Positions 1-58,514 of a stretch of DNA of 64,000 bases are shown piece by piece. The stretch's first letter is position 1. Every line of letters starts with the position of its first letter. Position numbers and translations under genes: made by a program. A model generated the notes under the pieces. That model was not told the DNA's origin and ran no database searches. It was given only the letters and a program-made list of their open reading frames with translations. Source of the DNA: Marsupella aquatica (Eukaryota > Plantae > Marchantiophyta); the NCBI GenBank assembly GCA_973895155.1, contig OZ316895.1:19296803-19360802 (forward strand), in the 5' to 3' direction.

Positions 1-285
1 GCCTATTGGGGATCATTCCGGCGGCGGAATCCAAACATACCTAACAAGACGGAGGGGAAGACAGGGGAAGACAGGGGAAGGCCTATATTAGGCCGGCTAC
101 GTATCTCATGACCCGATGAAGGATCTGTCCAGTATATGTGTGTAAAATGTTAATAGTAGTAGTAGAAGGTTAGCAGCGTCCCATGCCGCTAAGCCGCGGA
201 AACGGCCTCGCCAAGCACGAAACCTGCGGGAATCGGCTTGAGCTGGGGGGTTTCTTGGGTTTAGGGAGCCATGGGATGCACCACA
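1..285 (+). mobile_element. Right end of a giant LTR-like element (same family as 2644-6240, 22911-27489, 51793-55381, 58774-61188), inserted into a Copia integrase
   Basis: Ends TTCTTGGGTTTAGGG...ATGCACCACA, resembling the end of 22911-27489 (TTCTTGGGGTTAGAGG...ATGCGCCACA). Contains the family hairpin ATTCCGGCGGCGGAAT (15-30). Copia coding sequence begins right after 285. The left end is outside the window. Confidence 0.7.
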
Positions 286-2643: not shown

Positions 2644-5600
2644 TGTCACGTCGTCAGCCTTGGCCTTACTCGGGCTTCGGCTTAAATAGGCACATCCTTT
2701 GTCAAAATGAGGGTTCAGGTCCAGGGAGGCACGGAATGCACCCAACTTACATCAATAGCGCTATGTGCACCTATCGTCATATATGGACACCTCCTAGGTA
2801 TGATTTGTGTTCCGCCGCCGGAACGTACCTCAATCGATAGCAGGATCGACCCTGGCTTAAGGGCTTCTAAGCCTTCGTATTGTCTGCCTTCGATCCGGAT
2901 TTTGGTGGTATGGGTGCTCAACCCGGGCTCGCAACCACGTACACGCAAGCTGCACCCCGTGCACTACTTGGGTAGTGTGTTCGGCCAAGCGTTGGCACCT
3001 ATACACGAGATTCACACACATACATACGCACAAGCATAAAATCTTGTTTTATACGAAGGAAATAACGGGAAGGGATTTTACTCCATAAGAGACATATGCG
3101 TACACTTAGTTGACCCGAATGCTCTGGAGTGACCAGGTCCGAGGCCGAGGGTGTACACTACAACGGAACCCGGCTCCGCACTCGCCCAGCAAGCTTAGTC
3201 TTACACCCTCCCCTTGGTACTCTTCCACTCCCAGAGGTCAGGACTCCCCGCACATACCGCGGATGTCCAATACTGAGACTAAAAAAACCCCCTCCCTCTA
3301 CCGAGGGGTGCACTAAATACTAAGGGCCGAGGAATGGAGTGTCCTCCCGCCCAAAGATTCTGACTATCAGGCCAAAAAACGGTTGTGTCTTATTAGAAGA
3401 TCCTAACCTACGTAGGCTGGACAGCATGGCGATGCTGGTTTAACTAGGGCAGGTTCCTGTCCCCATAGCCTGATTTAGCTATTCCTAACCCTATTCTATT
3501 CCTACTCTGCCGCTAATGCCTGGCACGCTTGCTAGAGCCGCCTGAGTGGGAGCGGCCATCCCGCTGCTTACGAAGTCTGTTGTTGTCCGCCTTGAGGAGC
3601 TGGACCTGGTCCAGCAAAGATTTGTTCTCTCGCTTCTCCGCGTCCGTCTCCTCTGCTGCCTCCTGGCATGCCTCCTCCAGCTGCTGGGCATCACTCGTCA
3701 GCTTGCCCGCCAGCTGGTCCTGCTTCTCGGCTTTGGTTTGGAGCCGCGCCACTTCGGCCTGTAGCGTGGCTATCTCCGCAGTGTCCCACTGGGCCTGTCC
3801 AGGTCTTTCTGCCAGATGACAGTTTGATTCTTCAAACTGTCAATTTGGTCTGGAGTCGTGTAATCTCGACCTCGTTCCCAGCTTTGGCCTGTTCGGCTAG
3901 GGCGGTAAGGGCGTGCGCCTTTGCTAACAACTCATCGGCGGCTGCAACTTTGGGTCGTAGTTGCAGAAGCTCAGCCTCTTGAGCCGCAACTTTGTTCTTT
4001 AAGTATACGGACTCCACCCGGTACCGCTCTATCCTCTAAAGGGCCTCTGATTGGGCCCGACCTGCCTTTACTGCGGCAACCAACTCCTGATTGAAGAAAC
4101 AGGCTACCTTCCGGGCCATGAACTCCCCGGTATCCCGGGCAATTTGATGAGAGAAATCTTCCAGAAGCCCGTTCAGAAATGTACCCGGTATGAAGAGTTC
4201 CGGGTGGTCCAGGTTGTGCCTGTCTGGAGTTGGGCACGGGCAGACGTCAACACGCGCGGGGGCTGGGGCAGTGACATCCAGCCCTGGGGACGTAGTGTTG
4301 GAAGGGGTTGGAGTGTCCTCCTGCAGCAATTTCCGGTTCTCCGAAATAGCCACCGGTGGGTCCTTGGGAGACCTGGGCTTGAGTAAGGCCTCCGCTGTAC
4401 CGACTTCTATACTTGGCCCAGCCTGTTGGATCGCATCTACGGTTGCGATAACCGACCCATCCGGTACCTCCTCGGTTACGACTATAGCTACTTGTGGAGG
4501 TGGGGTGGGTGAAGCCTGCGTGTCCGCTGGACTTCGGGCCTCGGGTTGGGGCCGTCTCTCCAAGGCCGGGAAAACCCACCTAACTGGGACCAGCTTTGTA
4601 ACGTTGACACGGGGAAGGGTTCGTCGATCAAACCGAGCGTACCACTCGAGAATGATCTCGGTGTGGCTAGCAAAATATGCCTTCCCACCAATGTATAGCG
4701 TCTTTCTTCGCCGCTCCATCTCTTCATGGAATTTCTTAGCGAAGTACGATGCCCACTTCCTAGGTCGATAGTTCTCGACCTGGATAACTTGGGCAGCGGA
4801 GATCTCCCCCGGGGTTCCATCATGTGGAGGGCGTACCTTTGGAACTCCAGTCGCTCAGCTATCTCGGGGATGAGGCAGGTCCTCATCACGAACCCGTTGT
4901 CCACTGCTCCCTCTGAGGGAAAACTCGAGGATTGGTACTTGGCTCCCTTGCCCTCGGGAGCCCGTGATTCGACTCGATGGTCACCTTTGGGTAACCTGAA
5001 GATCATCTTGAGCCGTTCTTCCGTGAGGGACATATTCCTTCCCTGCAGCCGAGTATGTTGACGTGCGTCATCATAATTCTTGACGAATTTTGTCATGTCC
5101 TCCCCGTAGTACCTGCAAGTGTTCCAGGGGAGAGAGGCGAGGTGCTCGAATCCCTGAGTCTTCAGGTACACCGCATGCTTGGGATGGAGGATGTTTTTAT
5201 GCACGTTTTCCCCCATGTGGTGCATTGTCACCTTGGCCACGGCTACCATGGCCAATGGTAACCCGGATGCAGCGGCGGGTTCCTTCCTCTTCTTCCCCCG
5301 TGACTGGCTCGGGGAGGGTGACACCTCCCCATCCTCTCGATCGGGCATAGGTAGTGCTACCGCCATTAGTATTGGGCCTGGGGCGGCCACGGTCACCGTG
5401 TTGTCTGCTGGAGCCGCTCCTTGGGTCCGAGCATGGGGAGGGGACGATGTAGTGTCGGCCCCCTGAGTGTTTGCTCCTCTGGGCCGCCTGAGCAAGGGTG
5501 GGGTAGCCTCGTCGTCGTCGCTAAGGTCCACAGTGTTGATGACGGAGCGTACTTGTACTAGCGGGGCGATCGGTGGTGGGGGTTGGCTAGGCTGAGGCTG

Positions 5601-6240
5601 AGACTGAGACTGAAGCTGAGCCTGAGCCTGAGTCTGCGTTGGTGCGGGTACGGGTACGGGTATGGGGTCGACTGGGCCGGCGCCGATGGTTGAGGGTCTA
5701 GTTCCCATGAAGCTCTGCAGGTGCTGGTAGAAGTTCTCCGAAGCAAGTGCAGACGACCTTGTCGAACGGGTAGTGCTGGACTCGCTGTTGATGATAGCCC
5801 GAACCTGAGCAGGGATGTGGTCAAAGCTGGCGCGTGGACTGATGGACTGGTGCACTACAAAGGGTCGGCTCCCTTTTTATACCTTGAGGGCTTGTTGATC
5901 CCCCGACGTCTCCTCATTGCCTATAGGCTGAACCGTTCATGCTTGTAGTGTACCGGCCACTCCGCCGGTCTGAGTCAGTGCGTGTCAGTGGCCGCTTCCC
6001 TAAGTTTGTTATACGGACCCGAGGGAGGAGCCCCTCCACGCTCGCAACCCGGGCGTGCGAATGGCGATACGCCGCCAGTCCGAACATGAATTCCCCTTAT
6101 TGACTAATGATTTTCTACTCATAATGGTTACCAAAATACTGTCGTTATGCTAATAATAGCGGGCTAAGATACCCCTAACGCGCGTGCTAAGCGCGGTCCA
6201 GACTGAATTACTCATTACTCACCGTACCGGCGGCGTCACA
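2644..6240 (-). mobile_element. 3.6-kb TG...CA insertion (giant solo-LTR-like) with 5-bp TSD GAGAC
   Basis: GAGAC at 2639-2643 and 6241-6245; termini TGTCACGTCG...CGGCGTCACA. Removing it restores the Copia RNase H (IKGD-RTKH). Confidence 0.92.
3513..5855 (-). pseudogene. Retroelement accessory protein: Pro/Gln-rich N-terminus, plant-transposon (PMD/Transposase_32-like) core, C-terminal coiled coil; frameshifted
   Basis: ORFs 4488-5855, 4036-4719, 3832-4017 and 3513-3752. Core YLKTQGFEHLASLPW...LQGRNMSLTEERLKMIFRLP...YIGGKAYFASH is homologous to ORFs at 35665-36264 and 52544-53737. The domain name is an inference. Confidence 0.7.
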
Positions 6241-8262
6241 GAGACCGAACAAAACACATCACTCCTAAATTTTTCTTTACGCATAAACAACAAGGACATA
6301 GTATTGAAGTCCATTGGATTCAAAGCTCACAAAACATTGCGGACATGTTTACTAAATTGCTTCCCCTGCACTACACCGACAACATACAATTTTTGTAGGT
6401 TTACAACACTTAGCTGAATTGTAGAATTAAAACTGTTTAGAATTACAATTGATCTGCTCGCCTTTGCTCAGGGGGAGAATCATAGAGAAGCTCGCAACTG
6501 CCAAACTCCAAGAAAACAAGATTTTAACAAATGACATTCATACACATTGCAAATCAACATCAACAAATGAAAAATACTCACCTCCAACGATGGGCGCGGA
6601 AGAGGCTTTACACCGTGCCTGGAAATAGGAAAATGATTTCCTGTTATGAGAAAATTTTTACTGTTACGAGCAAAAATGAAATATACAAAATTTCTCATTA
6701 AAACTCAAAATATTTTTAAAAATGATCATTTTTGGCTAGCGCCAGGCGCTACTATTACTAGCTTGGGGCGCTAGTAAAAAATGTCAAAAATACAAACCAA
6801 AAAAAATTTCAAAAAAATTTCAAAAAATTCTCATCCATTTGTTGTTTATTGTTTACTGTTTGCTGTTTCCTTTTAATTGTTTCCTGGCACGGTGGTTATA
6901 CCTGGTGCGGAATAGCCACGAAACAATGACCTCAAGGGGAGCAAGTCGATCTCTATTCCAAGATACTACACACCAAACGGCAAATGCAAAATCCGCACAC
7001 TACAAATACCTCATAGCTCATAGAGCCTTCGACCGTGAACTCCAATTGATAACGCCTTCGATCGCGAAGACCCCAAGGAGCTAGTCTTGTACAAATTTGG
7101 GTTTCCTGGCCTGCCTCAAGCGCTCCATAGCCCAGTGCGCACTTCACAAACTTTGCTACTAAATCGTGCGCCCTGATCTATTTTGAGTGCTCTCTATCCC
7201 CAAGCTCAAACAAATCACATCCCTTCCAAGAATCAGTAGTCGCACATAGGAAATGATAGACATTTCATTCTTGACTCCCAACACACACATTCCATCCACA
7301 TAGCTCCCGACTCCACAAGAATCCCGACTCCACGACTCCCGACTACACACAATCCTTTTAGGGCTTTTACCTTGTTACTATTCAAAGACAGATAGCTTTA
7401 CAACACTTCATTCACTAACTCAATTACTCACTAATTACATTAGATTACAGGGTTTTTAGGGATGGAATGGTAACACTCTTTCCCCAGCAAGAAAGGAGGG
7501 GGGGTTTTAATGAGGTTACATTCCCCCCAAACCATAAACCTTTTTTTAAAGAGTAGACTAGAAGTGGGTGCAATATTTTTTTCCTGGGTCATGTTACACC
7601 CAAGGAGGAGTGTTGTAACCTGAGTTAACTAGACCATAGATGAGGTTAACTAGGATAAAGCCTACTCTAGTTAGGCCATACTAACTGCCTAACCACCAGG
7701 CTATTGGAAAGCCTATATATAAAGATATGGAAGGGAATGGAAGTTTAGTCGTTCACTCTATTGCAATAGTTGTTGATTTGTCTAATCTAGGTAAAGGTGT
7801 TGAAGAAGAGGACAAGGCCTTGCTTCTTCTCAGCTCCTTACCCCATCTTATCAGGGTTTGAAGTAGGTTCTCTTGTATAGAGACCTGAAGTCTATTTCAT
7901 ATGATGAGGTGGTAAGCTCTTTGCTGTCAGATGATGCATAGAAGAAATTGGGTCAAGCCCAGACAACATCTTCATCCGGTACTACGCTGAATATAAACCC
8001 TAAGAGCCCGTTTGGGAGGTCTACGTAGTGGACGAATGGAGAATTTAACAAGTTTAGATCTAAGTCAAGGGGGAGATCTAAATCTAGAGGAAAATCGCAA
8101 GAGAGAAAGAGATTGCATGTTGGAGATGTGGCAAGCCTGGCCACATGAAGAGGGATTGTTGGGTAAAGGACTCTATCGCATCAGCTAACGCAACATCTAG
8201 CGCACATGAGGTAGATTTACTCAATAGTGACATTTTATGATGCCAAGGTTTTTCTCTCAACG

Positions 8263-8559
8263 CTCGGGGGTTTCACTTCCACAAAAATGGCATATCACGT
8301 GCGACAAAGGATGGGGTCATTTTATTGGTTCTAAGGGAAGACTTAATAATTTTTGTAGAACAACTATAGGGTCTTTTAAATTAAAATTTGAGACTTATAA
8401 GAACATTAGGGTCTTTTTAATCCAATTTTTGGAATATTCCAAGAATATTTCAACTTTATAGGGGTTAAAAAATAAAATAAAAATCTTACATTTTAGGGGG
8501 TCCGAGACCTAAAAACGTCATAGGTGATGGAGAGGTCCCCATATAGTGAGACCCCCGAG
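8263..8559. mobile_element. ~297-bp MITE with 14-bp TIRs and 8-bp TSD
   Basis: TIRs CTCGGGGGTTTCAC / GTGAGACCCCCGAG; TSD TCTCAACG at 8255-8262 and 8560-8567; second copy at 58515-61227. Confidence 0.9.
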
Positions 8560-11434
8560 TCTCAACGTATTGTCACATCTAGGTGATGATGGCATACCCA
8601 AAATTCTCTTAGCTTGCCCTAAGTCTTTCATCTTAAATTTTGCACTAAGTAGTGCCTTGAGCTTAACAATCTCAAATCTATCCTTGGCTGCGATAAGCAT
8701 GTCATCCACATAAAGTACTAAAACAATGAAACCAAAGATAACATTCTTCATCGGTTTAAGATACACACAAGGATCAAACACATGGATCTAATCGTCAAAC
8801 CGCTTATTCCACTGCCTTGGTGACTGCTTCAACCCGTACAAGGATCTCAGCAATCTGCAAACCAAATCCTCTTGCCCTTTCTTCACAAAACCTAGCGGCT
8901 ATCTCATGAAGATCACCTCTTCCAAGGTGCCATAGAGGAAAGTTGTGACAACATCCATCTGATCTAGCAGTAGACCAAATAAAACAAGTACACACAATAG
9001 CCGTATTGTAGAGTACTTAGCAACTGGTAAGAAGACCTCATTGTAATCCACACTTTTCTCCTGCGTGAATCCCTTGGCTACTAACCTAGCCTTGTAGACC
9101 TTTGATCCACCTCCTATGGAATGATCCTTCAGCTTGTAAATCCACTTGTTGGCCACCACTTGCTGGCCTTCAAGAAGCGTGACCAACTCCCAAGTCTTGT
9201 TGTTCTTTAGTGACTGCATCTCTATTTGCATTACTGCAGTCCACTTTTGCTTCTACTTTGAAGCACTTGCCTCATGATACAAAGAAGGCTCTCCTTCTTC
9301 CAAGATAAAGCCATATGATCATCTTCAGGTGCAATGTCAACATCATCTAGTTTAGATAAATCTGCCCATTGTCCATACTTGGTAGGAGCTCTAGTAGAAC
9401 GACTGAAAGTTCTCTAGTAGATAATTCAGGCTGATCTTCTACTACTGCTGGATGAATTTGAGGTACACCAACATCAATCTACTTCTCTTGTTCCATCATA
9501 GGAACTAGCTCCATACCCATAGCATCTCTTTCTCTTTTGTCATGAACATCATCATGACTTATCTCCCCCCTAACCGAGTCCGAGATAGGAGATTTTCCCT
9601 TGTCAATATGGGAGCCCTAAGAACTCTCTCCCTCCTTTGATGATCTGGATTCATTAAAGGAAACATCTCTACTGACAATTAACTTAGAGATTACTGGATC
9701 CCATAACCTATAACCTTTTACACTTTTTTGATACCCAAGAAAAATGCACTTCCTTGATTTGGACTCCAACTTAGACCAAAGCTGGGAAGGTGTAAGCACA
9801 TAAACATCACATCCAAAAACCTTCAGATGTGAATAATTTGCTTGACGCCCGTACCTCATTTCAAATGGCGTCTTGAATCCAATTGCATTGGATGGAGATA
9901 AATTTACAAAATAAGTTGCAGTGTTGATAGCTTATGCCCAAAATTCATGTGGTAAGCATGATTGGCTCAACATACTCCTCGAGCACTCCAATAGTATTCG
10001 GTTGAGCCTCTCAGAAACACCATTCTACTGAGGAGTATAACTTATTGTGAGATGGCGTGTAATCCTTTGCTTTTTACAATTAATATATTCCAAATTCACC
10101 TGAACCATATTCACCACCGTTATCGGATCAAAAATATTTTATCTTGTTACAAGTCTGATTCTAAACTTGGGTTTTTCACCCCTTAGAAGTGGCAAAAACA
10201 TCAGACTTATTATGTATTAAATAAATCCACATATACCTTGAATAATCGTTAATGAACGTGACACAATAAGCTCTTCCAGAATGTGAGGGAGTAGGGTTGG
10301 TCCCCACACATCACTATGTACATACTAAAGTATCTCCTTGCTGGTGTGACTTTCAACTCCAAAAGGTTTTCTGTGTTGCTTTCCAAGCACACAATTCTCA
10401 CAGAAATCTAACAGTTTACAAGATTGCAAATTAGTAAATAATCTTTTTTTCTGAAGAACAACCAAACCTTTTTCACTCATGTGACTCAATCTGAAGTGCC
10501 ACAGTCGGGCCATCTCCTCATGAGATAAGGTTACACCGGCTTCATCACAGACTACATTGCCCTCCAAAATGTATAGATTTTTATGTCTCTTTCCCTTCAA
10601 CACAACTTTAGTACTAGCTAAAACCTGAAGAACACCATTAGCAAAACTCCATCAATGACCATTTGCTTCTAACTTATTGCAGCCAAGGATAGGTTTGAGA
10701 TTGTTAAGCTTAAGACACTGTTCAGTGCAAAGTTTAAGATGAAAGACTTAGGGCTAGTTAAGAGGATTTTGGGTATGCTATCATCACCTAGATGTGACAA
10801 TACGTTGAGACTCGGGGGTCTCACTATATGGGGACCTTCCCATCACCTGTGATGTTTTTAGGTCTACTTTGTAGAATTGTATTGCTCAGTCTACTACAAA
10901 AGCTGAGTATGTTGTAGCAATGGAACAAGCAAAGGAAGCTATTTGGTTGGATAGACTTATCACTGAGATGGGATTGTCACAAGGGAATGTGAAGCTCCAT
11001 TGTGATAGTCAGAGTGTTCTTCACCTTGTTGTGAACCAAGTGATGGATAGCAGAGTGAAACACATCGACATCAGGTACCATGTTATCAGGTAGGGTGTGT
11101 CTGATAATCAGTTTGAGATAGTCAAGATTGATGGTAAACTCAACCCGGTTGACGCTTTGATCAAAGTGATTCCTTTGGAGAGGTTCTCAAGACACCGTGC
11201 TACTTTGCAAGTTTTGCAATTGAAGCACAAGTAGAGCTACTTAGCATTTTTGTGACTTATTGTATATGGATTCCTCGATCCTGTTAGGCTACGGCTTAAT
11301 TCTAACTAACCCTTAGTTAACCCATGGTGGTTTTTAGGGGGAAACCTATTTAGGTGATTGTCTAGAATTTCCCATTGAGGATACTACATTGTAGCAATTT
11401 GTCAAATCCCCAAGACTAGAGTCAAGGGGGAGTT

Positions 11435-11726
11435 TGTTGAGTATTGCTCATAGTCTTGTGACTTTAGGGCTAATCGCAATTAGGCTAACTCAAGTTAGGA
11501 CTTAGCTTAGGTTAGCATTGATGCATGTTGTATATAACCAGGGTTGATGTCATCCCCTGGTGGATCTTCAGTTCATTGTTGGAGTGGAGCAAGAAAAAAG
11601 TAAAGGTCTTTTGCTTTCCCGTGAACATAGCCCGAGTCGTGAGGTTAACCACGTACTTGTTGTGTCGACTACCGTGTATGGTGTTTACATGTGCATGGTG
11701 TCTCGGGATAAGGATTATCCCCAACA
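11435..11726 (+). repeat. Copia 3' LTR (~292 bp)
   Basis: TGTTGAG...CCCAACA directly after the PPT; clearly similar to the reverse complement of LTR 22293-22633. Confidence 0.8.
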
Positions 11727-13121
11727 ACCCCGCCCCCGGACCCCGGCCCGCCGTCCCGGCCCGTCCCCCGACCCCCAAGCTTTACCCCGGGCCCCGAACC
11801 CGGACCCGGTCCCAACCGGATTTGGAGCCCGACTCTTTGGACCAGGGGAGACCAGGGGACCAGGGGAGATCGGGGGGAGTGTGGGAAGTGTCCGGGGGAG
11901 TCCGGCAAGTGTCCGGGGGATACAGGGGAGTTCGAGAAAATTTTGGCAAATATATGCTAATCTTTCGATTTTAGGGCCATCATTTGACTATTTTACATGC
12001 CCAGCAAGCCTTCAAGGTGCCCATAAACGTGGCATAATGGTCAAGAAAGACACCAAGATTTGGGAAACAATGCTCAACCTCGTGCGACCAAATGATGGTA
12101 GAAATTGGTAGAAGTGCACGTCCAGGTAGACAGCTTGAGGTGAGGGAGGCTGCGAGACTTCGAGAGTGTGTTGCCTTCCCGGGGCTGCGTTGGTAGAAGC
12201 CGCGTGGGAGCGTTTGTATGGATGTACAACAGCAACAAAGTAAATGCCGAATGCCAGCCAGTGGCCGCCGGGTTTTATGAGTTCGTTCCGTTTGAGACAG
12301 CCTTTATCTTCCTTTCTTCTTTCGAGCCGAGTAGCCCTGCTCCTTGCGCCAAATTAGGCGCGCCAAAACAGGCAATTCGCATTCGCCGACTAGTCAGTCT
12401 TCAATGCCTTGCTGACTCTTTGTACCTGTCGGCTACCTGCCTGTCTACCGGACTCTCTACTGTACCCTGTACACCGCCCTCCTAGCTCTCCCATGGCGCT
12501 CCTTCCTCACGGAGATTTCGCCCCAGAATAAGGGCTCTAAGTTTGACCTGTCTGTGTTCTTCCGCTCCAATTTAGTGCATTTCCTAGCATTGGACGACCC
12601 TGCCATCCGGGTGTTACATATACTTATACGTCCTTCGTCACATCCCTCGGAAGCCCTTGTCTTGTATTCCTTGTGCCTCTGACCAGTTTAACTGCATTCC
12701 TTTTTCCGTCTCTCTTCTGCCCCTGTACTCGAGCTGCAAATGCCATCAGGATCATCGTACCCCGTGACTGTGCATCTAGAGTGTCTAGTGTCGATCAGTC
12801 CTGACTCCTGACTGAACTCTCAGCACCCGCACAGACTTTCTGGGATAGACTCTTTTGCTCGACGTAGTGTACCTAGCTCGATCGATTCGTGGACATTGTG
12901 ACTTCATATTCAATTGCGGTGATCGGAGGACCTCGAGCAGCATTATTAGTGGAAGGTTGAGATTGGTTGGGTTCATCGTATGGTGAGCTCTTGCAGTGTT
13001 CTTTGAGCTGGTAGCGTTTGGTTTCGTACTGACTCCCGTTGAAGCACAGTCGTGGGAGAAGTAGAGTGAAATAGATACGATCGATCATTCAATCATCAGG
13101 AGGGAAGACAGCAGGCGGAAG

Positions 13122-14168
13122 ATGTCCACCATGAAATCTCTTCAATGGTGTACTCTGATTGCTCTTCTCTTTCTATGCTGCATTGTAAGCTCAGTTAGTG
13201 CACAGGGAATCTCCACGAGCGAACTCTTCAACAATCAGAACGACGAGGTGCCAACATTCTCTGGCGACGCGGGTCACCTACCTCTACGCGGGCTGAAGTT
13301 CCTTGTTGAGAATCCACAAACCATTCTCGATTATCACAACGGTCCGATCCTCACCAAGCAGAACACCGCGGTGTACGTCATCTGGTATGGCGCATTCACC
13401 GAGGATCTGAAGAACACAGTAAGAGATTTCTTCGCCTCCTTCAACTATTCAGTCGCTGGCACTCCGACCGTCAGCAGCTGGTGGAATCTCACCTCGGGCT
13501 ACAAGGATAGCAGTGGACACACAGTATCTCAACATCTGAACCTCGCAGCTGAGCTCGATGACGGCTCCTACTCGCTCGGAAAGGTCTTGAACAACTCCGA
13601 CGTTGAGCTTCTGGTCCAAAAAGCTGTCAACTCGACCTTCCCAGCCGATTCTCAGTCCGTTTATGTCGTGATGGCTTCAGCTGACGTTGATGTCGGCGAT
13701 TTCTGCATGAACTCTTGTGCTTCCCACTCAGCCACCAGTCCGGCGACGACTCCCGAAGGAAAGCAGCTACCGTATGCCTGGGTAGCCGACTCCGAGACTC
13801 AATGTCCCGGAAAGTGCTCGTGGCCGTTCGCCAAGGCTCAGTATGGACCCGACACTCCAGCATTGGTGCCACCAAACGCCGATGTTGGTACCGATGGAAT
13901 GATCATTAATCTCGCCACCATTCTCCCTGGTTGCATGACCAACCCATTCGATAATGGTTTCTATCAGGGTGATGCTGCTGCACCGCTCGAGGCTGCTTCC
14001 GCTTGTGCCGGTATGTTTGGACAGAATTCGTACGCCGGCAATCCTGGGGTTCTACAAACTGATAAAATTTCTGGAGCCAGTTACAACACTGAGGGTGTGA
14101 ATGGGCGGCGATTCTTGCTGCCCGCTCTCTGGGAAGCCTCTTCTCGTACTTGCACTCCCCCTTCATAG
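13122..14168 (+). CDS. EXORDIUM / phosphate-induced protein 1 (PHI-1) family secreted cell-wall protein, intronless
   Basis: Intact 348-aa ORF with a hydrophobic signal peptide and family motifs LDYHNGPIL, VYVIWYG, PTVSSWW, FCMNSCASH, QCPGKCSWPF, PPNADVGTDGM, TNPFDNGFYQG, APLEAASAC, GASYN, FLLPALW. Confidence 0.95.
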   Translation: MSTMKSLQWCTLIALLFLCCIVSSVSAQGISTSELFNNQNDEVPTFSGDAGHLPLRGLKFLVENPQTILDYHNGPILTKQNTAVYVIWYGAFTEDLKNTVRDFFASFNYSVAGTPTVSSWWNLTSGYKDSSGHTVSQHLNLAAELDDGSYSLGKVLNNSDVELLVQKAVNSTFPADSQSVYVVMASADVDVGDFCMNSCASHSATSPATTPEGKQLPYAWVADSETQCPGKCSWPFAKAQYGPDTPALVPPNADVGTDGMIINLATILPGCMTNPFDNGFYQGDAAAPLEAASACAGMFGQNSYAGNPGVLQTDKISGASYNTEGVNGRRFLLPALWEASSRTCTPPS

Positions 14169-14921
14169 AAAGAATTTTAGAAATTGCCACGTTTCGAGTT
14201 AGTTCCGCCATTTTCATGTCTGTAAGGAGACTGCTGGGTGGTGGGGGTGGTGGCTACACAGTAGTGCGGACGTTGTTTGAGTTCATACAGTAAGTAGTAA
14301 GTCGCGGAATCTGTTTTCGTTTATGTCAAGTAGCTGCTGCACTTGGTCCAGCACGTCATTGCCTGTCCTTCACCGTGCTGATAGGAGAGACAGCGACCAA
14401 CGTTGCGAGGTCTTAGGCGTCTTCTAATGTAATTATTGGCAACCATTGAATTCCTCGGTATAATGTTGTGTCTGATTGATTTTTCTTAAGTAAACAAGCA
14501 TGCCGATTTTCCGTCCAGGATCGACCTGACTTATGATCGTCTTTCACCCTTCCTAGTTGTCGAAAAGGAGGGATGCCCAGAGTGCATCACCAACATGCAT
14601 GTGTGAGGCCTTCATTTGTAGACGGGTATGAAGGTTTTGAAGAGCGCAAAATGACCCAAGACACTGGAGGAAGCTGTAAGTTTGGCTCTTGTGACCACTC
14701 CGTTTATTCTAATTAGATTCGACAATTTCCTATCGAAGCATTTGTGTTATCGATCTGGAAGCCAGCCATTAATTGTGTCAAGTAAAAGTCCGCCACTATT
14801 ATTGGATTTGTGATACGTTGTGTTTCCCATAGGCTGTAAGGAAAGTAGATACCCGAAAACGCAAACCCACTTACCTCTGTTCATTCAATGGGCACTGTAC
14901 TCCACAGGTGCAAAGTGACAG

Positions 14922-15004
14922 ACATCAATTGTTTTCTTCAGTGGAACGAATAACTTAAATACATCAATTGTTTTCTTCATTGGAACGAAGAACTTAAATA
15001 CATC
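14922..15004. repeat. 39-bp tandem duplication
   Basis: ACATCAATTGTTTTCTTCA(G/T)TGGAACGAA(T/G)AACTTAAAT x2. Confidence 0.85.
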
Positions 15005-15334
15005 GGTTTCTAAGACTCTTAACAACATGCAAGCTACGTCTGACGTGGCCCGTATTCGTGGAGGAGTCGATTGGGCGTGCCAACTAAATTATATATTTCG
15101 AACGTGTAATGCAAGTGGAAGGTCCTACAGAAGCGGAAAGAGAGCGGGGAATGTTGTAAGGGCATTCTCACACATGGTTTCTAGTGATCCGAGTAGCAAG
15201 GCGGATGAGCAGGCAGTCGCGGGCCTGGGCAAGTCAGGTTCCCCACCCTAACCCAATAAATTGTAGCACCACATCCTTGAGCCCTCCCAATGCCACTGAA
15301 CTGTGGCACCACATGCTTGATCTGTAGGAGTGTT

Positions 15335-15970
15335 TGCAAACACTCCCCCTACCACTGAGCTGTAGCAGTTTACTACAAACTCTACATGCTTGAGCCCACC
15401 CCATCTCACTAAGCTGTGGTAGCAAATGCATGAGCTGTAGCAAACACCCCCCCTACCACTCAGCTTAGCAGTTTACTACAAACTCTACATGCTTGAGCCC
15501 ACCCCATCTCACTAAGCTGCGGTAGCAAATGCTTTAGCTTGGAAACACTCGAACCATTTAAGATCTATCAATTATCTGGATCACTCAAGTAACATTTTTC
15601 ATTTCATTTTGGTGGTTATTTATATCTGGATCACTCATGAGGTCCATCAAGTAACACTTCTCATTTTGGGGGTCTTAAAGTAACACTTCTTATTTTGGGG
15701 GTCTTAAAGTGTATCTATCAACTTCTTGATGCCAGCTTGGATCACTCATGAGGTCCATCAAGTAACACTTTTCATTTTGGGGGTCTTAAAGTGTATCTAT
15801 CAACTTCTTGATGCCAGCTTTCAAGTTCTTGAAAAGGTGAATTGATGTTGAAATCTCTTGGCTGAATGGAAGGTGAGACAAACATGAGTTAATGTTGAAA
15901 TCTCTTAACCGAATGATAGGTGAGCCAAACATGAGTTGATGTTGAAATCTCTTGGCCGAATGTAAGGTGA
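15335..15970. repeat. Cluster of local tandem duplications (~105-bp x2, mosaic 30-110-bp units, ~50-bp x3)
   Basis: CAAACAC..CCCTACCACT...GGTAGCAAATGC twice; GGATCACTCATGAGGTCCATCAAGTAACACTT repeated; GATGTTGAAATCTCTT...AAACATGAGTT x3. Confidence 0.8.
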
Positions 15971-16389
15971 GCTCTTCTGCAACCGCACATCACTCAAGCC
16001 ATTCCTTTGGTTTATGAGTGAAGATGATGGGTAGACAGTATTTACCATCTTTCTTCACTCTTCAAGCAAAATAATTGTTGAGCAACTTACACACCTTGCC
16101 AAGGGGCAAGCCCCCAACACAATGTTCACTCATGTCCCAACCCATCCCCTTCAGCAAACCGTCAGCCCACCTCACAGCCCACTGATCATTGTATTCAGAG
16201 ACTAACTTCTCCAACCTTGACCTGCTTCCTCTAAACAGGGGAAAGTCTCAATCTTGGCAGACTTATTTGCAATTGATCCTCCCTTGAGCCCAACATTCAA
16301 GCTTACATCCACTTGATCTGCATTGCTCTGTTCAATAACCTGCAGCCAAGACTCAACCTCATTGGCATCAAGCTCAACCAAAGTGGATA

Positions 16390-16501
16390 GTGCATCCAAA
16401 GAAACAGCTTCCTTATATGCCTCACTGAATGCATAGTTGTATTGAGTGCATCCAAAGAAACAGCTTCCTTATATGCCTCACTGAATGCATAGTTGTATTG
16501 A
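16390..16501. repeat. 57-bp tandem duplication
   Basis: GTGCATCCAAAGAAACAGCTTCCTTATATGCCTCACTGAATGCATAGTTGTATTGA x2. Confidence 0.85.
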
Positions 16502-18235
16502 ACTCTAAAGTTCACATGCCTCCCCATCAACATTCAAATCATCAAGGAGAAGCATCTCCCTTGTGACATCTAAATAACCTTCAGGGACAACTCTGTTGCT
16601 TAACTTTGCCTTCATCTAAATAAAATCACATGACCAACTCTCTCAAACCAGCTCCTAAGTTGCGTAACAATCACTCCAAATGACACAAGCTGCCCAGTTG
16701 CTACAACCAATGCATAGATACAAGAACTCAAGACAAGACAAGCTGACCACTTGACTACAGTGGTGGACCTAGCCACCTAGTGTCTTCACCAATCCCAACA
16801 CTCTTGCCTAAGTGTTCTTGGTGCCCAAACGGTTACATGGAATTCCTTGAGCAAACAACTTGGTGCCTCTATCACCACCAGTGACAACTCCCATACGAAA
16901 TGTCACACGTCGTTCAATGGTCTTTGTAGTCTGCACAAGCAACCAAACATCTCGATAAATAACTCAATAGAATCTAGGAACTCCAAGACCATTATCTTGA
17001 CTCAAGCTCACAGACATTGGTAAATAGGCCAGTGAATTAAACCTCCCAAGCCCACATGACCTTGCCATAAGCTGAAGCTAGAGCTGACACCCACTATTTG
17101 TTCAAAATAGTCCGTCTGTCAGATGCCACCCGAGCTTCCCCACTTTTCATCCGTCACTAGCTGACCACCTTGCCTCCAGCACATGCTCATGGTCCAAATA
17201 ACTAGCTTGTCCCTAAGCTTGTCCCAAAATGTTGGGACCGAATTGGCCCTGACTCTAGCAACCAACTCTAAAGTTCCAACTCAACTGAGTGTCTAAGGCC
17301 AAAGTGCACTCAGACCTTAACATCCACACCTACTCTAGACGTAATGTCTCCCCAATGCAAGCTCCCATGAGAAACTAAACGTGGTTTGGCTGCTATTTTG
17401 ACAAGATTTGGCAAGTGAGCAAGATAGCCCCCGCAAACCTCAAGAATCAATGGCACCCCTAGACCCAACTGAGCTCATGATGATATATTCCTCCTCAAGA
17501 GCTTTTCAAACCAAAATGATAATTCTAGTAACAAAGGTAGTGAGTATTGAGAAAGAATCAAGTGAAACTAATATACTATCAAACCTACTTCATCATACTT
17601 GCGGATCAACATTTCTCAAACTCTAGCTTTTTTACGACATATTGATCCTAATATTTCCAAGAAAAAATGAAATAGAAATATAATTTGGATTTCTATTCAG
17701 ATTCATGACTTTAATAGAGGACAAAAATAATGCACTCCTACTTCTTTTGATAAGACACTATTATACTATTGGCTACAAATTAAGCTCCAAAATGATAGAT
17801 CAAGTGTTACCTCATTGATGGTTTGTCTAAAATATGGATACTAATAAAAAATAAATTACAAAGTGGAAGATTAGAAATATATTTCTCTTTTAAATTCATG
17901 ATGACTCTTATATTTCTTTGTTGTCTAGGCAAAGGACCCCCTTCCCTAAATTTCCAAAGAGATCTTGTTCTTTAACATCTCATCTATAAATCTATCACTC
18001 ATTCATTTGTTTTTCGGGCCAAATGATGTCTCACTACTATGTTCAAGGCAAGACGTGTTTTATAATCTTGAATGATAAAATTGAGGAATGAGGGGAGAGT
18101 GCCCCTTTCCATTTAATTTATAGTGCTCATTAAGAGGGCATGGATCAAGCCCCAACACTTGGAGGAAAGCCAAGTGGCAAGCATCGAAGGTACAAAAGTG
18201 TGCCCAAAAGATAATGGAGGAACTATATACTATAT

Positions 18236-18415
18236 TGTAGCTAATGGACTTACTGTAGTTCATACAATGTAGCTAGTGGAGCTATTGTAGGCTGCACACT
18301 GTAGCTAGTGGAGCAATTGTAGTCCTGTACTATAGCTAGTGGAGCTACTATAATTTGTACATTGTAGTTTATACACTGTAGTTAGTGGAACAACTATAAT
18401 CCGTACACTATAGCC
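18236..18415. repeat. Degenerate ~32-bp minisatellite
   Basis: About 5 copies of TGTAGCTAGTGGAGCTATTGTAG...ACAC. Confidence 0.75.
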
Positions 18416-21400
18416 TCGGGGGCACTATATGTAGGGCTCTACATCACGTGCAATGTTTTAGGGTCTAGACCCCCTAACTTTTAAGTGAAAAAAAATTTGC
18501 CCACTCCCTTACTTTCTGAAAAGTGGCCATTTTTGAATTAAATACCCTTATAAAACCTTATCTAAAGTTCTATGATGATTTTAAAAATGCCTATTAAGAA
18601 AAGTAAAGTACCTCAATAGTGTAGAGCCAATTGTGCAAATTGATCCGCATTTCCAATACATTCAATGTATTTAGATCGTGAAGTTGAGTATCTTCTAAAT
18701 TGCATTCATGATTCTTGAATAGTGAAGCATGGTGGGTGCCAGATACCATGAATAGGTAACCTAACACCATGGATTACCTATTCAAGGCATTGGTTCTCTA
18801 CCTTGCTTCACAAGCTCCCAACATAATGATGTTCACATGACAAAGGGGAATTGAATCCCTAATTGAGTATAAATCTCAATTTGCCAATCCGCCATCCCCT
18901 ACTCTACTCCCTCCCACTAACCCTAAACATGCATCACATACACACACAACAAACTACTTTCAAATAAACAATACTCTATTATATATCACAATTTACTCAC
19001 ACTCTCAATGTATGTGGTCAAAGCCTGCAAGTCACTTGCATCTAGTACATGATATACTATGTCAACTATCCCAGACTTCATTGTCAAGTTCACATTTGAA
19101 ATTACCATCTCAATATCAATCCATTGTCCATCCGTTGCATCATAAGTGAACAAAGTTTTGTTGTTACCAATCGATTTGTACCAATTACACTGCAAGCGGC
19201 ACACACTTCCACTCTGTCCAACTACAGGTACATGCCTGTCCAACAGATCTATTACTTTCCGACGTTTGACCCAATGAGAGCCATAATTCTTCTGTATCAT
19301 AAACTCAATCCTACCCAACCAATATTCTTTCTTTGTAGATATTGCCTCAACAGCAGGCGCTTTTTCTCTTTCCTTCCTCTTCTTTGACTTGGATGATCTG
19401 GTAGAAGGACCAACCTCTGCAGCAAACTCAAACAAAATTGTTATATCACTACCAATGTCAATCAAACAAGTCACAGAGTCACAATTTTCCTTCTCCTTAC
19501 TAGTACTGTAATAGGTCTTTTGGGCTATCCTAGTTAGCCTATCCTTTGACATGAAAGGATTGTAGCATAATTGACTCACAAGATTGGACTTGTAGATAGT
19601 CCTTCCCTCGTAACTTACAGTAGACACTAGTGACCGGGGTGTCTGCACATCAGTTAACTCTGCTTGAACTCCAACCAAGACATGCCTTACTTCATGTCCT
19701 AGTGTCTCCATCTCACAAAATGGGTTAGTGTCCATCTCAATCTCACAATCATCAACTATTAATGGCTCAATAAAATTCTGACTGTCCAGAGTGTCCCATG
19801 AATCAATCCGATTGAGATCTTCTTCAGGATCATCAAACTTTAGAAACTCTCCAATTGGAGGCTCAGGTCTAGGGCCTACATTAGATCGATGCTCAACTGT
19901 GTCTTCAACATTATCACATATTAACACAACCTCTTTCATGACACTTGTATTTGGCCAAGTCTCTGCCTCCACCTCCCAAGGATGAACCCACCATCGTCTT
20001 TTTGTTGCTGGCAAAGAACTCCTTGGTGACATGTTCAGCTTGCACAACAAATCCTTTGCTTCCTGCAAACCTTCCTTTAGAGCATCAACAACTAGCTCAT
20101 TAGTCTGAACTGCAAAGTAATCAAATAAATTTGGAGCTTGTTCTCCTTCATCCGAAGGATGTAAAGTTTCCCAAACATGATCATGTTTATCATGTGATCA
20201 ATGAATCTTCAATCCCTCTAGTCCATACTCTAATCCAGCTAGTCTATTCAGTCCCACTACACTGTCCAATAGAGATCCAAAGTCATAATTTCTCTCATGG
20301 CCACTCATGCCACCTACCTTGTTGAAAATATCTCACAGCAATTTGATCCCAACAAGTGAAATGCAACTTGCAGAATATGGGAACTTGTCCCAAAAGGCAC
20401 AGATTAACAATACTACAAAATGACAAGACATGTTGATATCATGGAAAGCCTGCACAAAAATCATGTTCTTCTCTGTGATAGATCCAACATTTCCTGTCAC
20501 AGAATGATCACCATACCTCAACCATAGCCTCCATAATCGGAAGAAGCAAGATACCTTTGATGCCAAGACAACACGGGTTCTTAGGTCATGCTTAAAAAAG
20601 AAGAAAATATCTATGTAGTCTACACAAACCTCCAAGTATATCATGGTCCCAAAGCTTTGTCATGACGAACATCTCGTCGCTCATACATATGCTGCAGGTA
20701 GGCCTGCATTCTTCTGGAAGCTATTCGTTGTGGGCCAGCCCAGTTTTGTCTATCTATCCTATTCACATCATCCCAAATGAATGCAAACCATGCTCATGAA
20801 TTGCATAATGGTTATAAATAGATGTGACATATGACAAAGATGCATGCATGCTGATCACCAAGAACTAACATAGCAGACACTCGGTCCAATGGGTTAACTG
20901 CCTTCTTGCCATTGTGAGGTGGGTCTTGGTCTCCAAAACCATACAAATCTCCATTTGGAAGTATGGACAATGAGTATTGCCACCCAACCCATCTTACACT
21001 GTACCTAGGAAAGGAACCATTCATAGCAGTATAATCTTTCATCATCAATTTCCTACAACAAGCATCACCATCACTAGCATGGCCCAACAAAAGGACCAAC
21101 ATTGTCTCTGCAATGTGTGTCCCACATGGACTTTAGCTGCACCCAATGCTCTCTTACCCAAGGAGCTTTAAACTTGTTACATATTGGTACAACACACAAT
21201 GCCAATTTAGGCATCTTTGCATGCAAAGGATTGACAATGATTACTCTAGCATACATGCCTTTGGCACACTGCTCAAAAGTACTTACAATCTTGTCATACC
21301 CTTCAGTAGCTGCTCCAACCAGTACTTCCAAGCCAAAAGAACATGTGTGCTCTTCTAAGGGGCCACAAAAACCAATGAGAGTGTCATAGTTAGCTTCCTA

Positions 21401-22292
21401 TATGTCACACACAATACAATATAGACATCAGCTCATGATGTGAAAACTCACCCAACACATTGAAAAGAACAAGCTAATTTACTATAGAGACAAAAATACG
21501 CGGTAGCGAGGATCATCAGTTATTAGTTTTGCCGCCTTGAAATTTCTGAATCTCAGCTGAGCAGCTGAGATAGGGCCTTCGCATTTTTGTGCATCTCAGC
21601 TTGAGCAGCTGAGATTGACTCAATCTTAGCTGACCTCGCCGAGATCGGCATAAGGACAAAAAAAACGGATTTATTTTTATTTGATTATTTTTGAAAAATT
21701 CCAACCAAAAAAAATCGACACAATTTGGCATCCGTACCGTACGGACATTGAACTATCTCGGCGGGTCTTGCCGAGATGTGGTATCCGTAGGGTACGGACA
21801 CCCAATAGTGAAAAGAAATTCATTTTTTTTCTCCATCAAATTTTGAGAAAAATAATAATTTTGTATTTTTTTTTGGCGCCTCAACTTGGCGGCCTCTCTG
21901 AGATGACGTGACGACTGATATCAGGTTGATTGATGGAAAACACTGATAACTAATGATGTAGCTTTACTAAAAACATACAAACATAGGTCTCTCTTTTATC
22001 CTTGTTTCATCCTCAGCAAACATTACTGGTACATCTCCTGAAATTCCAAATGATTACTTTGATGCACATAGTACTCTCCACACCTCCTGGAATATCTCTT
22101 TTCAAATGCCAGCTCTAAAGGGTGGTAGTTTTGCTCTATCACATTTCAAGGTCTTCAAGACCACCTAGGTTTGCCTGGAAATAATGAGCCAGTTGTCTGC
22201 CTCCAAACTGGAACATTGCTTGGAAAAAGGCCTTGGTTCTCTTATTGTATTGATAACCCTTAGCATTTCTCTACAAGTTCTTAGCTACATCT

Positions 22293-22633
22293 TGTTGAGC
22301 ATAGACGACATTTGCAACGGCAAGCCCATGAACCATCCAACGCACAATAGTCAACACAAAGAGATACGTGGTTCACCTCCACATGAGGCTACGTCCACGG
22401 GAACACACAAGAGCTTTATTGCACTCTAGGCCGACCGGTCATACCAAGCATCCACAACACAAGCTCTCCCTATCTCTCAACTAGCTCCGCAATGAACCCA
22501 AGTTCCACTAGGGTCTGGCATCAGCCCTGGCTATATGCACAATAGCACTACCGCTAACATTAGCTAAGTCCTAACCCGAGTTAGATTAACTGTGTTTAGC
22601 TCATGAGTCACAAGACTAGAGCAATATCTAACA
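22293..22633 (-). repeat. Copia 3' LTR
   Basis: TGTTGAGC...TCTAACA, highly similar to 33212-33555; adjacent PPT (AACTCCCCCTTG on +). Confidence 0.95.
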
Positions 22634-22910
22634 AACTCCCCCTTGACTCTTGTCTTGGGGACTGGACTAAATGCTACCATATGGATTCCTCAGTGGGAAG
22701 TTCTAGAAATCACCAAACCAGGTCTTCCCCTAAAAACCACAAGGGTTAACTAAGGGTTAACTAGAACTAAGCCGTAGCTAAACAGGAATGAGTAATCCAT
22801 ATACAAATAGTCTTACATTGCTAAATAACTCTACTTACACTACAACTGCAAAACTTGCAAAGTAGCACGGTGTCTTGAGAAACTCTCCAAAGGAATCACT
22901 TTGGTAAAGG

Positions 22911-25900
22911 TGTGATGCCTTGCCAGGATCACAAAGTACTTAGTTAAGCCTAAAATAATGGCTAAATAAAGATTAGGTAGATAGAATAAGGGAGGAATAA
23001 GGATCGAAGCCGATTGCAACGTGTTCGGGGGAGATTGTGATAGGATAGGATCCAACGGTCGTGATTAAGTAGGATTAGGGTTATGACCTAATCTGGGCTT
23101 GATCAGGTAAGCCATCAGGAGGCGGCTTCATAGGGAGGGGACCGACACTCTATACACTTGCTCATTTGCTTGTTCGATCAACCTAGGGAGGTGGAAGCAG
23201 CTGCCGATCGATTGGGGGAGGTGGTTAGGGAATTGCTCAAGCTCTTTTCTCTTTCGTTGGAATGACCATGGTGAATCAAGCGGCCAAGTTTTGGGGTTGT
23301 TTGCTTGAAGAAGCACGACAGCTCATACCAACTTACGAAGACGTCGAGCCGGAACGAGCAGCAAGGGAACGGGCGGAGCTCGCGCGGTTATGGGGAATTC
23401 ATAAGACGGCTTTTGCGGGAATGGAAGAAGTCCTTGAGAAATTTGCATGGACTCCCACCAGTGCAGAGCTTGACAAATTGCTGATCCAACATAATCAAGT
23501 CGTTGGAATTTGGGAGGTGATTAAGAACGCTGGGCAGCCGGTGTGGGAGTTGAAGGGTTACACTTCAGCTTGGAGCAAGGAAGCCATTCTTGGAGAGTTC
23601 TCAGGAACGGAGGAGATGAAGCGTAAGGGTAGTTCGGCATCTGCAACACCAGCTAAGCGGAACCGGTCGGAGAGGCAGGCTAAGGCTGAAGCCATGCCAG
23701 TTCGTGATAGGGCAGTAGAGGATAAGTTTATGGCGGGTTGGGCGGATAGGCTACCTGCCGACTTACAACTGCAGTTTGCATGAGAAGAAGATGAGGTCTT
23801 CTGTGCTATCCAGGATAACAAGTATTCGGGATACATGAACAACACCGGCTTAGAGGGATTCATCCGATTACCATGGCAGTTAAAAGAGATACCAGATGAG
23901 GATCTGTTGGACTTTGTGGGATGCTGGGAGGCTTCTTCCAACACGACGCTACTGTATGGAAAGGTGTTCAAACTAACACCTGCGCTTATCGAAGCCGTCT
24001 TCGCTTTACCAATAGGAAGGAAGACTAAGGTGGAGAAAAGGAAGACGTTGCCGGATGACCAGTTTAGGTCATTTCCACTAAGAATGGGTTCTTCGGGAAT
24101 CAATGTACAAACCCGCATATAGGGCAGCTGATTGATTTCCTGAGAGTCACGTTGCATTGTACCTTGCCAAGAGCAGAATTCGGCAAAGCCCAGGTATTTT
24201 TGGTGAAGAATATCGATTCAAGCTGAGACTACAACGACTATCTCTTAATGCAGTTGAAGAAGGCATTGAATGAAGAGAAGCAGAGCATTGGGGAAGGAGC
24301 GGTATCCAGATTAGGGTACCATCTGCGATTACTTTGCTGATATGCAAGAAGCCAGTCTTTTCCACCAGTGTTGCCTATACAGGAGCAGATGCCGATCACT
24401 GCACCACTTGAGGAGGTGGCGGAGGACGAGCAGCCCCTGAACAAGCGACGGCAAGAGAAGAGGTTGGCAATACAGGCAGTCCAGGGATAGGAGAATTCCC
24501 CTCTCAAGGAACCAGAGGTGGTAACATATGACGTGGTGAGAAATCCGCTGCAACGGCCTACTTGTAATAGCCCATACGCAGGTATTCAACTGGTAGAGAG
24601 GAAGATGACTGCCGAAGAAAGAAACAAGATAAGCAAATGGATTCAGAGTTAGAAGATGGAAGCCGAGGCCGAAGTCCGGAGAGGCCAGTCCTTAGAGCTT
24701 ATAACTGGGCCCAAGTGGAGGAACCGATGGAGGTAAATCAACCAGTGGCAGCCCAACAATACTCAGAGGAGGAGATTGGGGGCTTTGCAGAAGAGGCCGA
24801 CATGCTCGGTAGTCAGGTTAATGTGGATGACTACGACAATGATTCTGTCGATCATGGGGAGAGACCGGTGCCGGGAGTGAGAACGTTGGGAAGGTTTTGT
24901 GGAAGACTTCCCTCAGTCTTTTATGGCAAGCCGGAGGATCATAAAACCCCAAAGTCTCCTCCACCGGACGTGACACCATTGGAATTTGACCAAATGAAGG
25001 AAGTCAAGGCAGGTCTGAAGGAGAAACTCGACGAGTGGAGGGCCCAAAATGACATGCAGGAACGGCAGCTACCAGGCGGTGATTGGCCGAAGGAAATAAG
25101 ATGGCTTAGTGAGAAGCAGGCCGAACCTCTCACTGACTTTGATCAATTACGAGCAGAAGCCTGGGGGAAACGGCCTTGTTGGCAGATGCCAGTATCACTT
25201 GGCAGATGCCAGTATCACTTGGCAGATCAAAATATGCCAGGGATCGGGCTAGGGAGTATGGAGACATGTGTGGACTGCTAGCCTTAGAAATCTTCGGCAA
25301 TTAGTTAGAATCCGGACCATTTCTTAGAAAGGAAATGGCTGACCAAACAAGGTTGGAGGAGGCAATGACGTTGGAGCGATTAAAGAAAGAAGAGGTAATC
25401 GCTCGGCTTCGCTCCATGGAAGCCAAAGTTGCTAAGACGAAGTCTGATCAACCAACTCAGTAGGATCTCCTAAGCAGCAGGAATTAGAAGTGGCGAACAA
25501 CCAATTGGAAAACTACCAATTGGATAACCAGCAGATCAAGGAAAAATTGACGAAGGTAGAGCTGGAGTTAGCCGATTCAAAAGCATAAGTACAGGGTCTA
25601 AATTTCCAAGTCGAGAAGCTCAGAAAGACGGCTAAGGATTAGGCCACCCAGAGCGAGAAGGCCTTGGCAGAAGCCCAAAGGAAGTATGACAAGTTATTCG
25701 ACCCGGTTGGAGGTCATGCGTGAGAAGCATGATGACGCCATTTTCACAACGGCCAATGATCACCTAAGCCGAGTCCAATAGATACGCAAGGAGCTTCAGG
25801 AGGAGCTAATCAGGATAAAGCAGACATGGACGGACGAGGTCACAAAGCTGGAAAGCATCAACGATTCCCAAAGAGCCGCTTTGGATAAGCAAGAGTTTGA

Positions 25901-27489: not shown

Positions 27490-27494
27490 AAAGG

Positions 27495-33197: not shown

Positions 33198-33209
33198 GCT
33201 CTGATACCA
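33198..33209 (-). promoter_or_regulatory. Primer binding site complementary to tRNA-iMet
   Basis: TGGTATCAGAGC on the minus strand, 2 nt from the 5' LTR. Confidence 0.95.
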
Positions 33210-33211
33210 CT

Positions 33212-40336: not shown

Positions 40337-40489
40337 TCACCGACACTGGGGACACAACCATGATCCACTAGGAATCACCTGCAATGGTGGTGTCAAACAT
40401 GACATGTGTCATCCTCTAGAATACTTATCACAAATCAACATAGTAGCTGCTCCCTGAGCAAATCCACACAACATACATTTCAAGCCAGC
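40337..40489 (-). pseudogene. PHD finger at the C-terminus of the Gypsy integrase
   Basis: Hand translation: CMLCGFAQGAATMLICDKYSRG*HMSCLTPPLQVIPSGSWLCPQCR* (C4HC3 pattern, one Cys degraded to Tyr). Confidence 0.85.
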
Positions 40490-58493: not shown

Positions 58494-58514
58494 CTACCTA
58501 GAATGGTGTGACAC

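Follow-up and report, generated by a model that had tools for sequence, protein, structure and literature searches.

A conserved hairpin motif, probably acting as RNA, in giant ORF-bearing long terminal repeats of the liverwort Marsupella aquatica

The window analysed here is a 64,000-nt stretch of the Marsupella aquatica genome (assembly GCA_973895155.1, contig OZ316895.1, forward-strand positions 19,296,803 to 19,360,802), and consists of repeat-rich land-plant DNA with pieces of Copia, Gypsy and long interspersed nuclear elements. It holds five copies of a compact hairpin motif (35-80 nt, one copy per element) within elements that resemble very long solitary long terminal repeats (LTRs), referred to as hosts A to E (Table 1). 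The motif is conserved between hosts that have otherwise diverged, and it is probably an RNA-level motif without an Rfam family, residing in an unusual type of giant LTR that bears an open reading frame (ORF).

Host elements and motif copies

All four complete hosts (A, C, D and E; 2.4-4.6 kb) have TG..CA ends, a short inverted repeat and 5-bp target duplications. No terminal direct repeats were found inside them (the first and last 400 nt align at a score of 19-22 only), and the host ORFs that were scanned gave no Pfam matches to reverse transcriptase or integrase. Based on this anatomy, and with no primer-binding site or gag-pol seen, we infer that the hosts are solo LTRs, presumably from a non-chromovirus Ty3/gypsy lineage. 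Four hosts lie inside Copia or Copia-like LTR sequence (174-2635 and 6241 onward; 8297-11578; 22291-33555; 58241-61486), which may point to preferred nesting or reflect no more than how dense the repeats are locally.

Table 1 Coordinates of host elements, motif copies and associated features in the window.
Feature	Position	Strand	Remarks
Host A	2644-6240	-	3597 bp; TG..CA; target duplication GTCTC; sits in Copia RNase H region
Host B, 3' end	1-285	+	end position inferred
Host C	22911-27489	+	4579 bp; TG..CA; target duplication AAAGG; sits in Copia element
Host D	51793-55381	+	3589 bp; TG..CA; target duplication GGGCT
Host E	58774-61188	-	2415 bp; TG..CA; target duplication ACGTG
A' (A-related, 5' half only)	35700-37736	-	72% DNA identity; cut off before motif and structured blocks
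Motif copy A	2797-2873	-	hairpin 1, middle hairpin, core stem-bulge-stem
Motif copy B	8-41	+	core only (upstream part off window); lower stem reduced
Motif copy C	27229-27283	+	GAGA-capped hairpin 1 abuts core; no middle hairpin
Motif copy D	55131-55208	+	core differences match CpG decay
Motif copy E	59081-59161	-	host LTR without long ORF
ORF domain, A	4570-5264	-	split over two frames
ORF domain, C	23784-24071	+
ORF domain, D	52826-53401	+
ORF domain, A'	35782-36387	-
Second block, A	3094-3255	-	about 160 nt; predicted structured
Second block, D	54800-54966	+	as above
Second block, E	59625-59790	-	as above
GT-rich tract, A	3013-3036	-	upstream of motif; counterparts start at 27048 (+), 55017 (+) and 59303 (-)
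TATA-like box, A	5876-5881	-	359 nt from 5' end; same offset in A' (37377)
Initiator-like TTGCTCATTT, C, D, A'			247-427 nt from 5' end

The five copies had been claimed in an earlier reading of the letters alone (hereafter the original prediction), and all five are present, place and strand included. The claimed spacing of about 150-310 nt to the downstream terminus is likewise borne out, with 153 nt (A), 206 nt (C), 173 nt (D) and 307 nt (E) between the motif end and the element 3' end, and about 244 nt in B, whose end is placed by likeness to that of C. A core pattern matched the window five times, with no sixth match at up to three mismatches and five matches reached in 0 of 100 shuffles; as this pattern was built from the five copies themselves, it indicates the lack of further copies rather than independent significance. 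A covariance model scored the five copies at 58-63 bits and four other places in the window at no more than 13 bits. The best-conserved part is a perfect CG-rich palindrome. Near-invariant components are the core stem, capped by a G-rich loop, and the A/C-rich 3' strand; the latter is fixed even where its pairing partner changes.

Pattern scans of metagenomes and of prokaryote genomes returned no further copies, and a protein-based search for related loci in metagenomes gave 592 pattern matches, none of them confirmed. No viral contig carried the motif pattern, and a loosened pattern produced three chance matches there (best 14.5 bits) that do not pair. A description of the motif was not found in the literature searched, including the accessible parts of PMC10085705 and PMC6431247; supplements and most subscription papers lay outside this search, so the absence of a description is unproven.

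Conservation of the motif against its flanks

In all ten pairs of copies, 19-23 of the 26 core bases are identical (73-88%). The surrounding sequence has diverged much further: fourfold degenerate sites of the host ORF are saturated (7 of 24 identical between A and D), protein identity in the ORF domain is 26-43% between subfamilies, and outside the core neither B nor C resembles any other element in plus-strand DNA. A second line of evidence comes from contigs of public sequencing runs placed on A at 80% likeness (five of eight listed runs compared). In runs X1 and X2, which represent two organisms from two studies, the summed contig depth reaches 361,000-459,000 at 2787-2828, compared with 1,800-2,500 at 2745-2765 and 4,400-23,000 at 2892-2933, a peak 16- to 250-fold above the near flanks. 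The original prediction had allowed that the flanks might be equally conserved. Since the core is retained despite saturated synonymous sites and coincides with this depth peak, that objection fails, and we conclude that the motif is real and selected.

The same observations speak to the possibility that the motif has no function and represents leftover homology with chance palindromes reshaped by methyl-cytosine decay. The core change in D and the wobble pair in C are reachable by CpG/CHG decay and folding z-scores are modest, as such an origin would have it, but a core this similar next to saturated synonymous sites, and a depth peak seen in two runs, leave the idea largely refuted and with only a minimal residual probability.

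Pairing and strand

Across the tested stems, 91-100% of cells (one base pair in one copy) are paired, including 24 of 24 in hairpin 1 and 96.7% in the upper core stem. The middle hairpin behaves as originally described, in that it varies yet pairs: three different sequences fold into it in A, D and E, and C has none. Read in ORF sense, the 83 stem cells comprise 70 Watson-Crick pairs, seven G-U pairs, one A-C and five other combinations, and loose contig ends from the public runs supply further versions of the middle hairpin, with G-U pairs in the same sense. Among run variants, C>T at the two CpGs of the stems retains pairing as G-U and accounts for 2.5-3.7% of depth, whereas the pair-breaking G>A accounts for 0.4% and 1.5% at 2819 and is unlisted at 2813. 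Because neutral decay is expected to be symmetric, we count the excess of C>T over G>A as a strand bias in favour of RNA. Relative to shuffles, the folding z-score is lower in sense (-0.5 to -2.6) than in antisense (+0.2 to -2.3) orientation in all five copies, by small margins. The GAGA-capped hairpin of C, claimed to work only in ORF-sense RNA, fits in part: the GNRA identity of its loop is strand-specific, but the 7-bp stem forms on either strand, and a GNRA loop occurs in only one of four copies.

Several observations weigh against a structured RNA. Significant covariation is not reached with five copies, as the two two-sided changes in 11 core pairs were matched by 133 of 500 shuffles and the single one in six pairs of hairpin 1 by 120 of 500. 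The lower GGTA/TACC stem pairs in 84% of cells, is broken in B and D (two of five copies) and shows no two-sided change. The original caveat that compensatory changes could reflect CpG/CHG decay holds for the wobble of C and for the core change of D, the latter being reachable by two CpG decays. The seven G-U cells reduce to about five independent sites (5/6, p = 0.11), the run variant table is incomplete (a variant at 2803 is absent from it), and the minimum free energy fold of A does not contain the full structure. As to the depth peak, run X5 does not rise above its upstream flank, X6 and X7 hold too few contigs to contribute (3 and 1), depth cannot be equated with copy number, and the window itself may stem from the sample of X1. 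The proposal of a cis-acting structured RNA thus stands with regard to conservation, the solo-LTR-like hosts, the lack of an Rfam match and the lean towards ORF sense, but not with regard to significant covariation. We regard the strand bias as moderate evidence, better than the covariation, and on these sequence comparisons consider it likely that the motif functions as ORF-sense RNA.

Comparison with known RNA classes and LTR elements

As the original prediction would have it, no Rfam family matches the motif: the whole window has no hit at gathering level, and the regions around A, C, D and E gave only chance matches at E-values up to 10 (the region of copy B was scanned at gathering level only). 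Dimerisation, one of the roles suggested, found no support in the form of kissing loops, as there is no conserved self-complementary loop; loop self-duplexes are weak or unfavourable in C and D, and the loops contain no contiguous palindrome. Pairing between loops 1 and 3 is possible in three of four copies (-2.3 to -4.8 kcal/mol). An apparent likeness to tRNA A and B boxes, noted by eye against the consensus, was dropped after ARAGORN reported no tRNA, and the same ARAGORN result together with an absence of matches to the Rfam 5S and tRNA models speaks against a tRNA- or 5S-derived LTR of the Helenus, Cassandra or Ajax type. A role as splice donor was also dropped, as the GT at the relevant place is absent in B and D.

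A self-cleaving ribozyme had been among the original suggestions, and tests for the hairpin and hammerhead classes failed. The hairpin ribozyme has seven invariant positions, including A22, A23, A24, C25 and A38, according to the portion of PMC8216279 consulted, and letters for these five can be assigned in C and E, though not fully in A, B and D. With the letters so assigned, each of the five copies pairs just one or two of three positions in helices 3 and 4, the base resembling A38 sits in a Watson-Crick pair, and loop A (G8, G+1) has no candidate in B and C and one each in A, D and E, at unrelated offsets. A hammerhead catalytic core is missing from both strands of all five copy regions (0 of 10). 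A ribozyme of a class not yet known, with a place in the LTR like that of the retrozyme hammerheads, would suit the five assignable letters and the multi-stem layout with its conserved unpaired strand. Against it stand the failure of helices 3 and 4, the paired A38-like base and the want of a loop A partner at a shared place, as well as the missing hammerhead core and the absence of any Rfam ribozyme down to an E-value of 10. Furthermore, cleavage just before the primer site would remove the repeat and unique 5' regions (R/U5) from the genomic RNA, and we therefore consider this option very improbable.

The literature on related elements is cited here from excerpts of the papers concerned. Retrozymes resemble the hosts in that a structured RNA motif is nearly the sole conserved part of their LTR (PMC4918200), but those LTRs are 300-400 bp long, non-coding and equipped with a hammerhead core, which is absent from the motif regions. 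Cassandra, Helenus and Ajax likewise have an RNA-like structure within the LTR (PMC10886601), whereas the present hosts are 10 times longer and have no tRNA or 5S likeness. Sireviruses keep short motifs with a CGG-CCG signature across divergent plant LTR elements, among them conserved RM boxes and an inverted repeat at the polypurine tract/3' LTR (PMC2829016). They are, however, Ty1/copia elements whose RM boxes occur in many copies, upstream of the promoter, unlike the present motif, which is single-copy and near the 3' end.

The host length of 2.4-4.6 kb and the presence of an extra ORF can be compared with the non-chromovirus Ogre/Tat/Athila group of Ty3/gypsy elements, for which LTRs reaching about 5 kb, target duplications of 4-5 bp and extra ORFs encoding a plant-mobile-type domain and a coiled coil have been described (PMC6317226, PMC4408406). 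Liverworts contain Tat Z1/Z2 lineages (PMC10508981, PMC13468544). In contrast to the present hosts, where the ORF lies between the TG..CA ends, the extra ORFs of this group are described as internal (PMC6317226, PMC4408406, PMC7264820), and the portions of the literature on the group that were covered contain no mention of a conserved RNA motif. Matches to plant-mobile-type Pfam domains were absent from the ORFs of the window.

Position in the LTR and proposed role

TATA-like boxes and initiator-like TTGCTCATTT sequences (Table 1) suggest that transcription starts close to the element's 5' end and runs through the ORF to the motif. Each of the four complete elements has its most GT-rich 24-mer, over its entire length, 114-181 nt upstream of hairpin 1. 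Excerpts of PMC3601003 place a GT-rich feature of LTRs downstream of the poly(A) signal, so that the tract presumably follows the poly(A) site and the motif would fall in U5.

Based on this placement, we propose that the motif is a U5 cis-signal for packaging or for the start of reverse transcription, read by Gag or reverse transcriptase, and assign this reading a probability of roughly 0.45. With transcription starting 250-430 nt from the element 5' end and poly(A) added immediately ahead of the GT-rich tract, the ORF messenger would end before the motif. Only read-through RNA from the 5' LTR would then carry the motif, 150-310 nt before the primer-binding site, where it would fold in ORF-sense RNA and be recognised by the element's Gag or reverse transcriptase, leading to packaging of the full-length RNA or to the start of copying. 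The near-invariant core stem, G-rich loop and A/C-rich 3' strand might be read as sequence by the protein, with hairpin 1 and the variable, dispensable middle hairpin acting as scaffold. Host E has no ORF of at least 150 aa and nothing that resembles the ORF of A, C and D at protein level, yet keeps both this motif and a second structured block, which fits a replication signal rather than a 3' untranslated region element of the ORF. On the other hand, the two-fold variation in spacing to the LTR end is a poor fit to direct pairing with the primer site, and no full-length element, primer-binding site, transcript end or binding partner was seen.

Like the R/U5 leader stem-loops of retroviruses and retrotransposons (TAR, poly(A) hairpin, U5 inverted repeat and packaging signals such as Psi), the present motif forms a hairpin cluster near the LTR 3' end, after a GT-rich tract, and residual conservation of the R region has been tied to stem-loops (PMC3601003, in part). 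It differs in having no sequence or Rfam match and no self-complementary loop, and in lying downstream of an ORF, over 3 kb from the inferred promoter. The motif may well be, as far as its letters and position tell, an undescribed form of retroelement leader signal.

An RNA that controls expression would make use of the same position, as the motif lies between the LTR ORF and the inferred start of gag; it would promote read-through past the poly(A) site of the 5' LTR, help to export the long RNA, or allow gag to be translated internally downstream of an ORF-bearing leader of 3 kb. In A and D, moreover, the best duplex of the A/C-rich 3' strand is formed with the upstream GT-rich tract (-8.7 kcal/mol each). 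This duplex is not the best one in C or E (two of four) and follows from base composition, no long-range partner of the strand common to the copies was found, and E retains the motif without an upstream ORF; we consider expression control unlikely.

The LTR-borne protein and a possible DNA-level site

The ORF domain common to A, C, D and A', and absent in E, has no Pfam family; a proline-rich linker comes after it, and then a tail resembling a coiled coil. Word-based protein searches with the host ORF found nothing, and a profile search alone recovered homologues, 73 among 1.84 billion proteins; five of 20 that were looked up are NCBI proteins of the liverwort Calypogeia fissa. Weak matches to Transposase_32, below its cut-off, occur in five of 44 members of the ORF family. 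The target into which D inserted (55801-56313 (-), continuing at 51180-51790 (-)) appears by eye to encode the same ORF domain; it gave no blastp match at an E-value of 0.001 and has no motif nearby.

Structure models of the domain were confident and reached a predicted local distance difference test score of 84 for the liverwort homologue P0005 and 93 for A' (with X at two stops). The sole match of the P0005 model with Z of at least 2 among 48,161 chains was DNA-bound VANC21, at Z 7.9, a root-mean-square deviation of 4.0, 183 aligned residues and 8-10% identity, bearing in mind that Z under 8 can be commonplace. Foldseek ranked VANC21 first of 28 rows for the A' model (template-modelling score 0.48, E-value 1.7; others at most 0.17), but returned nothing for the P0005 model at an E-value of 0.001 in the PDB or viral libraries, with VANC21 unlisted, as it was in a sequence-profile search of the domain. 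An Atlas lead pointed to DUF1985 at 0.84, which is described as a VANC domain in the part of PMC5735166 available. The LTR-borne protein is thus predicted to resemble VANC21 of VANDAL21 in fold, and differs from it in its low identity, the lack of a profile match and the fact that VANDALs are DNA transposons.

This resemblance bears on whether the palindromic core might be a double-stranded DNA site, recognised by a host factor or by the protein that the LTR itself encodes. The location of the best conservation in a perfect CG-rich palindrome, the predicted likeness of the protein to a DNA-binding anti-silencing factor and the non-significant covariation are all compatible with such a site. 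VANC targets, however, are described as short, many-copy, tandem and different between families (PMC5735166, in part), and the hairpin motif was rejected as one of them, being single-copy per element and common to several subfamilies that are only 26-43% identical in protein. Nor does a DNA site account for the G-U bias or for the pairing that the middle hairpin retains through its sequence changes, and we judge it improbable. CG-containing hexamers are enriched in every LTR, a different set in each (at 60480-60830 (-) in E, scattered through A, C and D), with the CpG-poor background inflating the enrichment, and E contains short tandem repeats where the ORF would be. These hexamers and repeats, rather than the motif, could be VANC-like target arrays.

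Second conserved block and neighbouring features

A second conserved block lies behind the ORF stop and upstream of the motif in A, D and E (Table 1), and was not found in C. It is predicted to fold into a small GC hairpin and a long stem closing two adjacent hairpins with 3-nt loops. Both partners have changed in 21 of the 48 pairs predicted, in a fold that is based on three sequences and may be overfitted. The block has a depth peak of its own (86,000-276,000 in parts of 3165-3227), and a partial echo of it is visible at 59414-59470.

Among the neighbours, a Phi_1/EXORDIUM gene at 13065-14165 (+) looks intact amid the repeats. A separate Gypsy gag-pol (40200-47362 (-)) has a cysteine-rich tail after its integrase and no motif nearby, and probably belongs to another lineage. 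BRCT-like-looking ORFs occur at 38522-38986 (-) and 61909-62541 (+), the first with a weak Pfam BRCT match (E-value 0.017).

Implications

How plant LTR retrotransposons choose RNA for packaging is poorly defined, and the sections of a review on these elements that we drew on (PMC12786077) name no cis packaging structure. A 35-80 nt motif that has survived synonymous saturation offers a handle for function tests and a probe for LTRs of this lineage across genomes. If the VANC21-like ORF in the LTR were confirmed, sequence-specific anti-silencing would extend from DNA transposons to retrotransposons. It is also conceivable, as a long shot, that the giant LTRs are self-contained modules in which the VANC21-fold protein reads the U5 hairpin RNA and switches the element from short messenger to packageable full-length RNA, in the manner of Tat/TAR or Rev/RRE. 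Were this true, each LTR would encode a protein and two conserved structured RNAs, in a plant retrotransposon.

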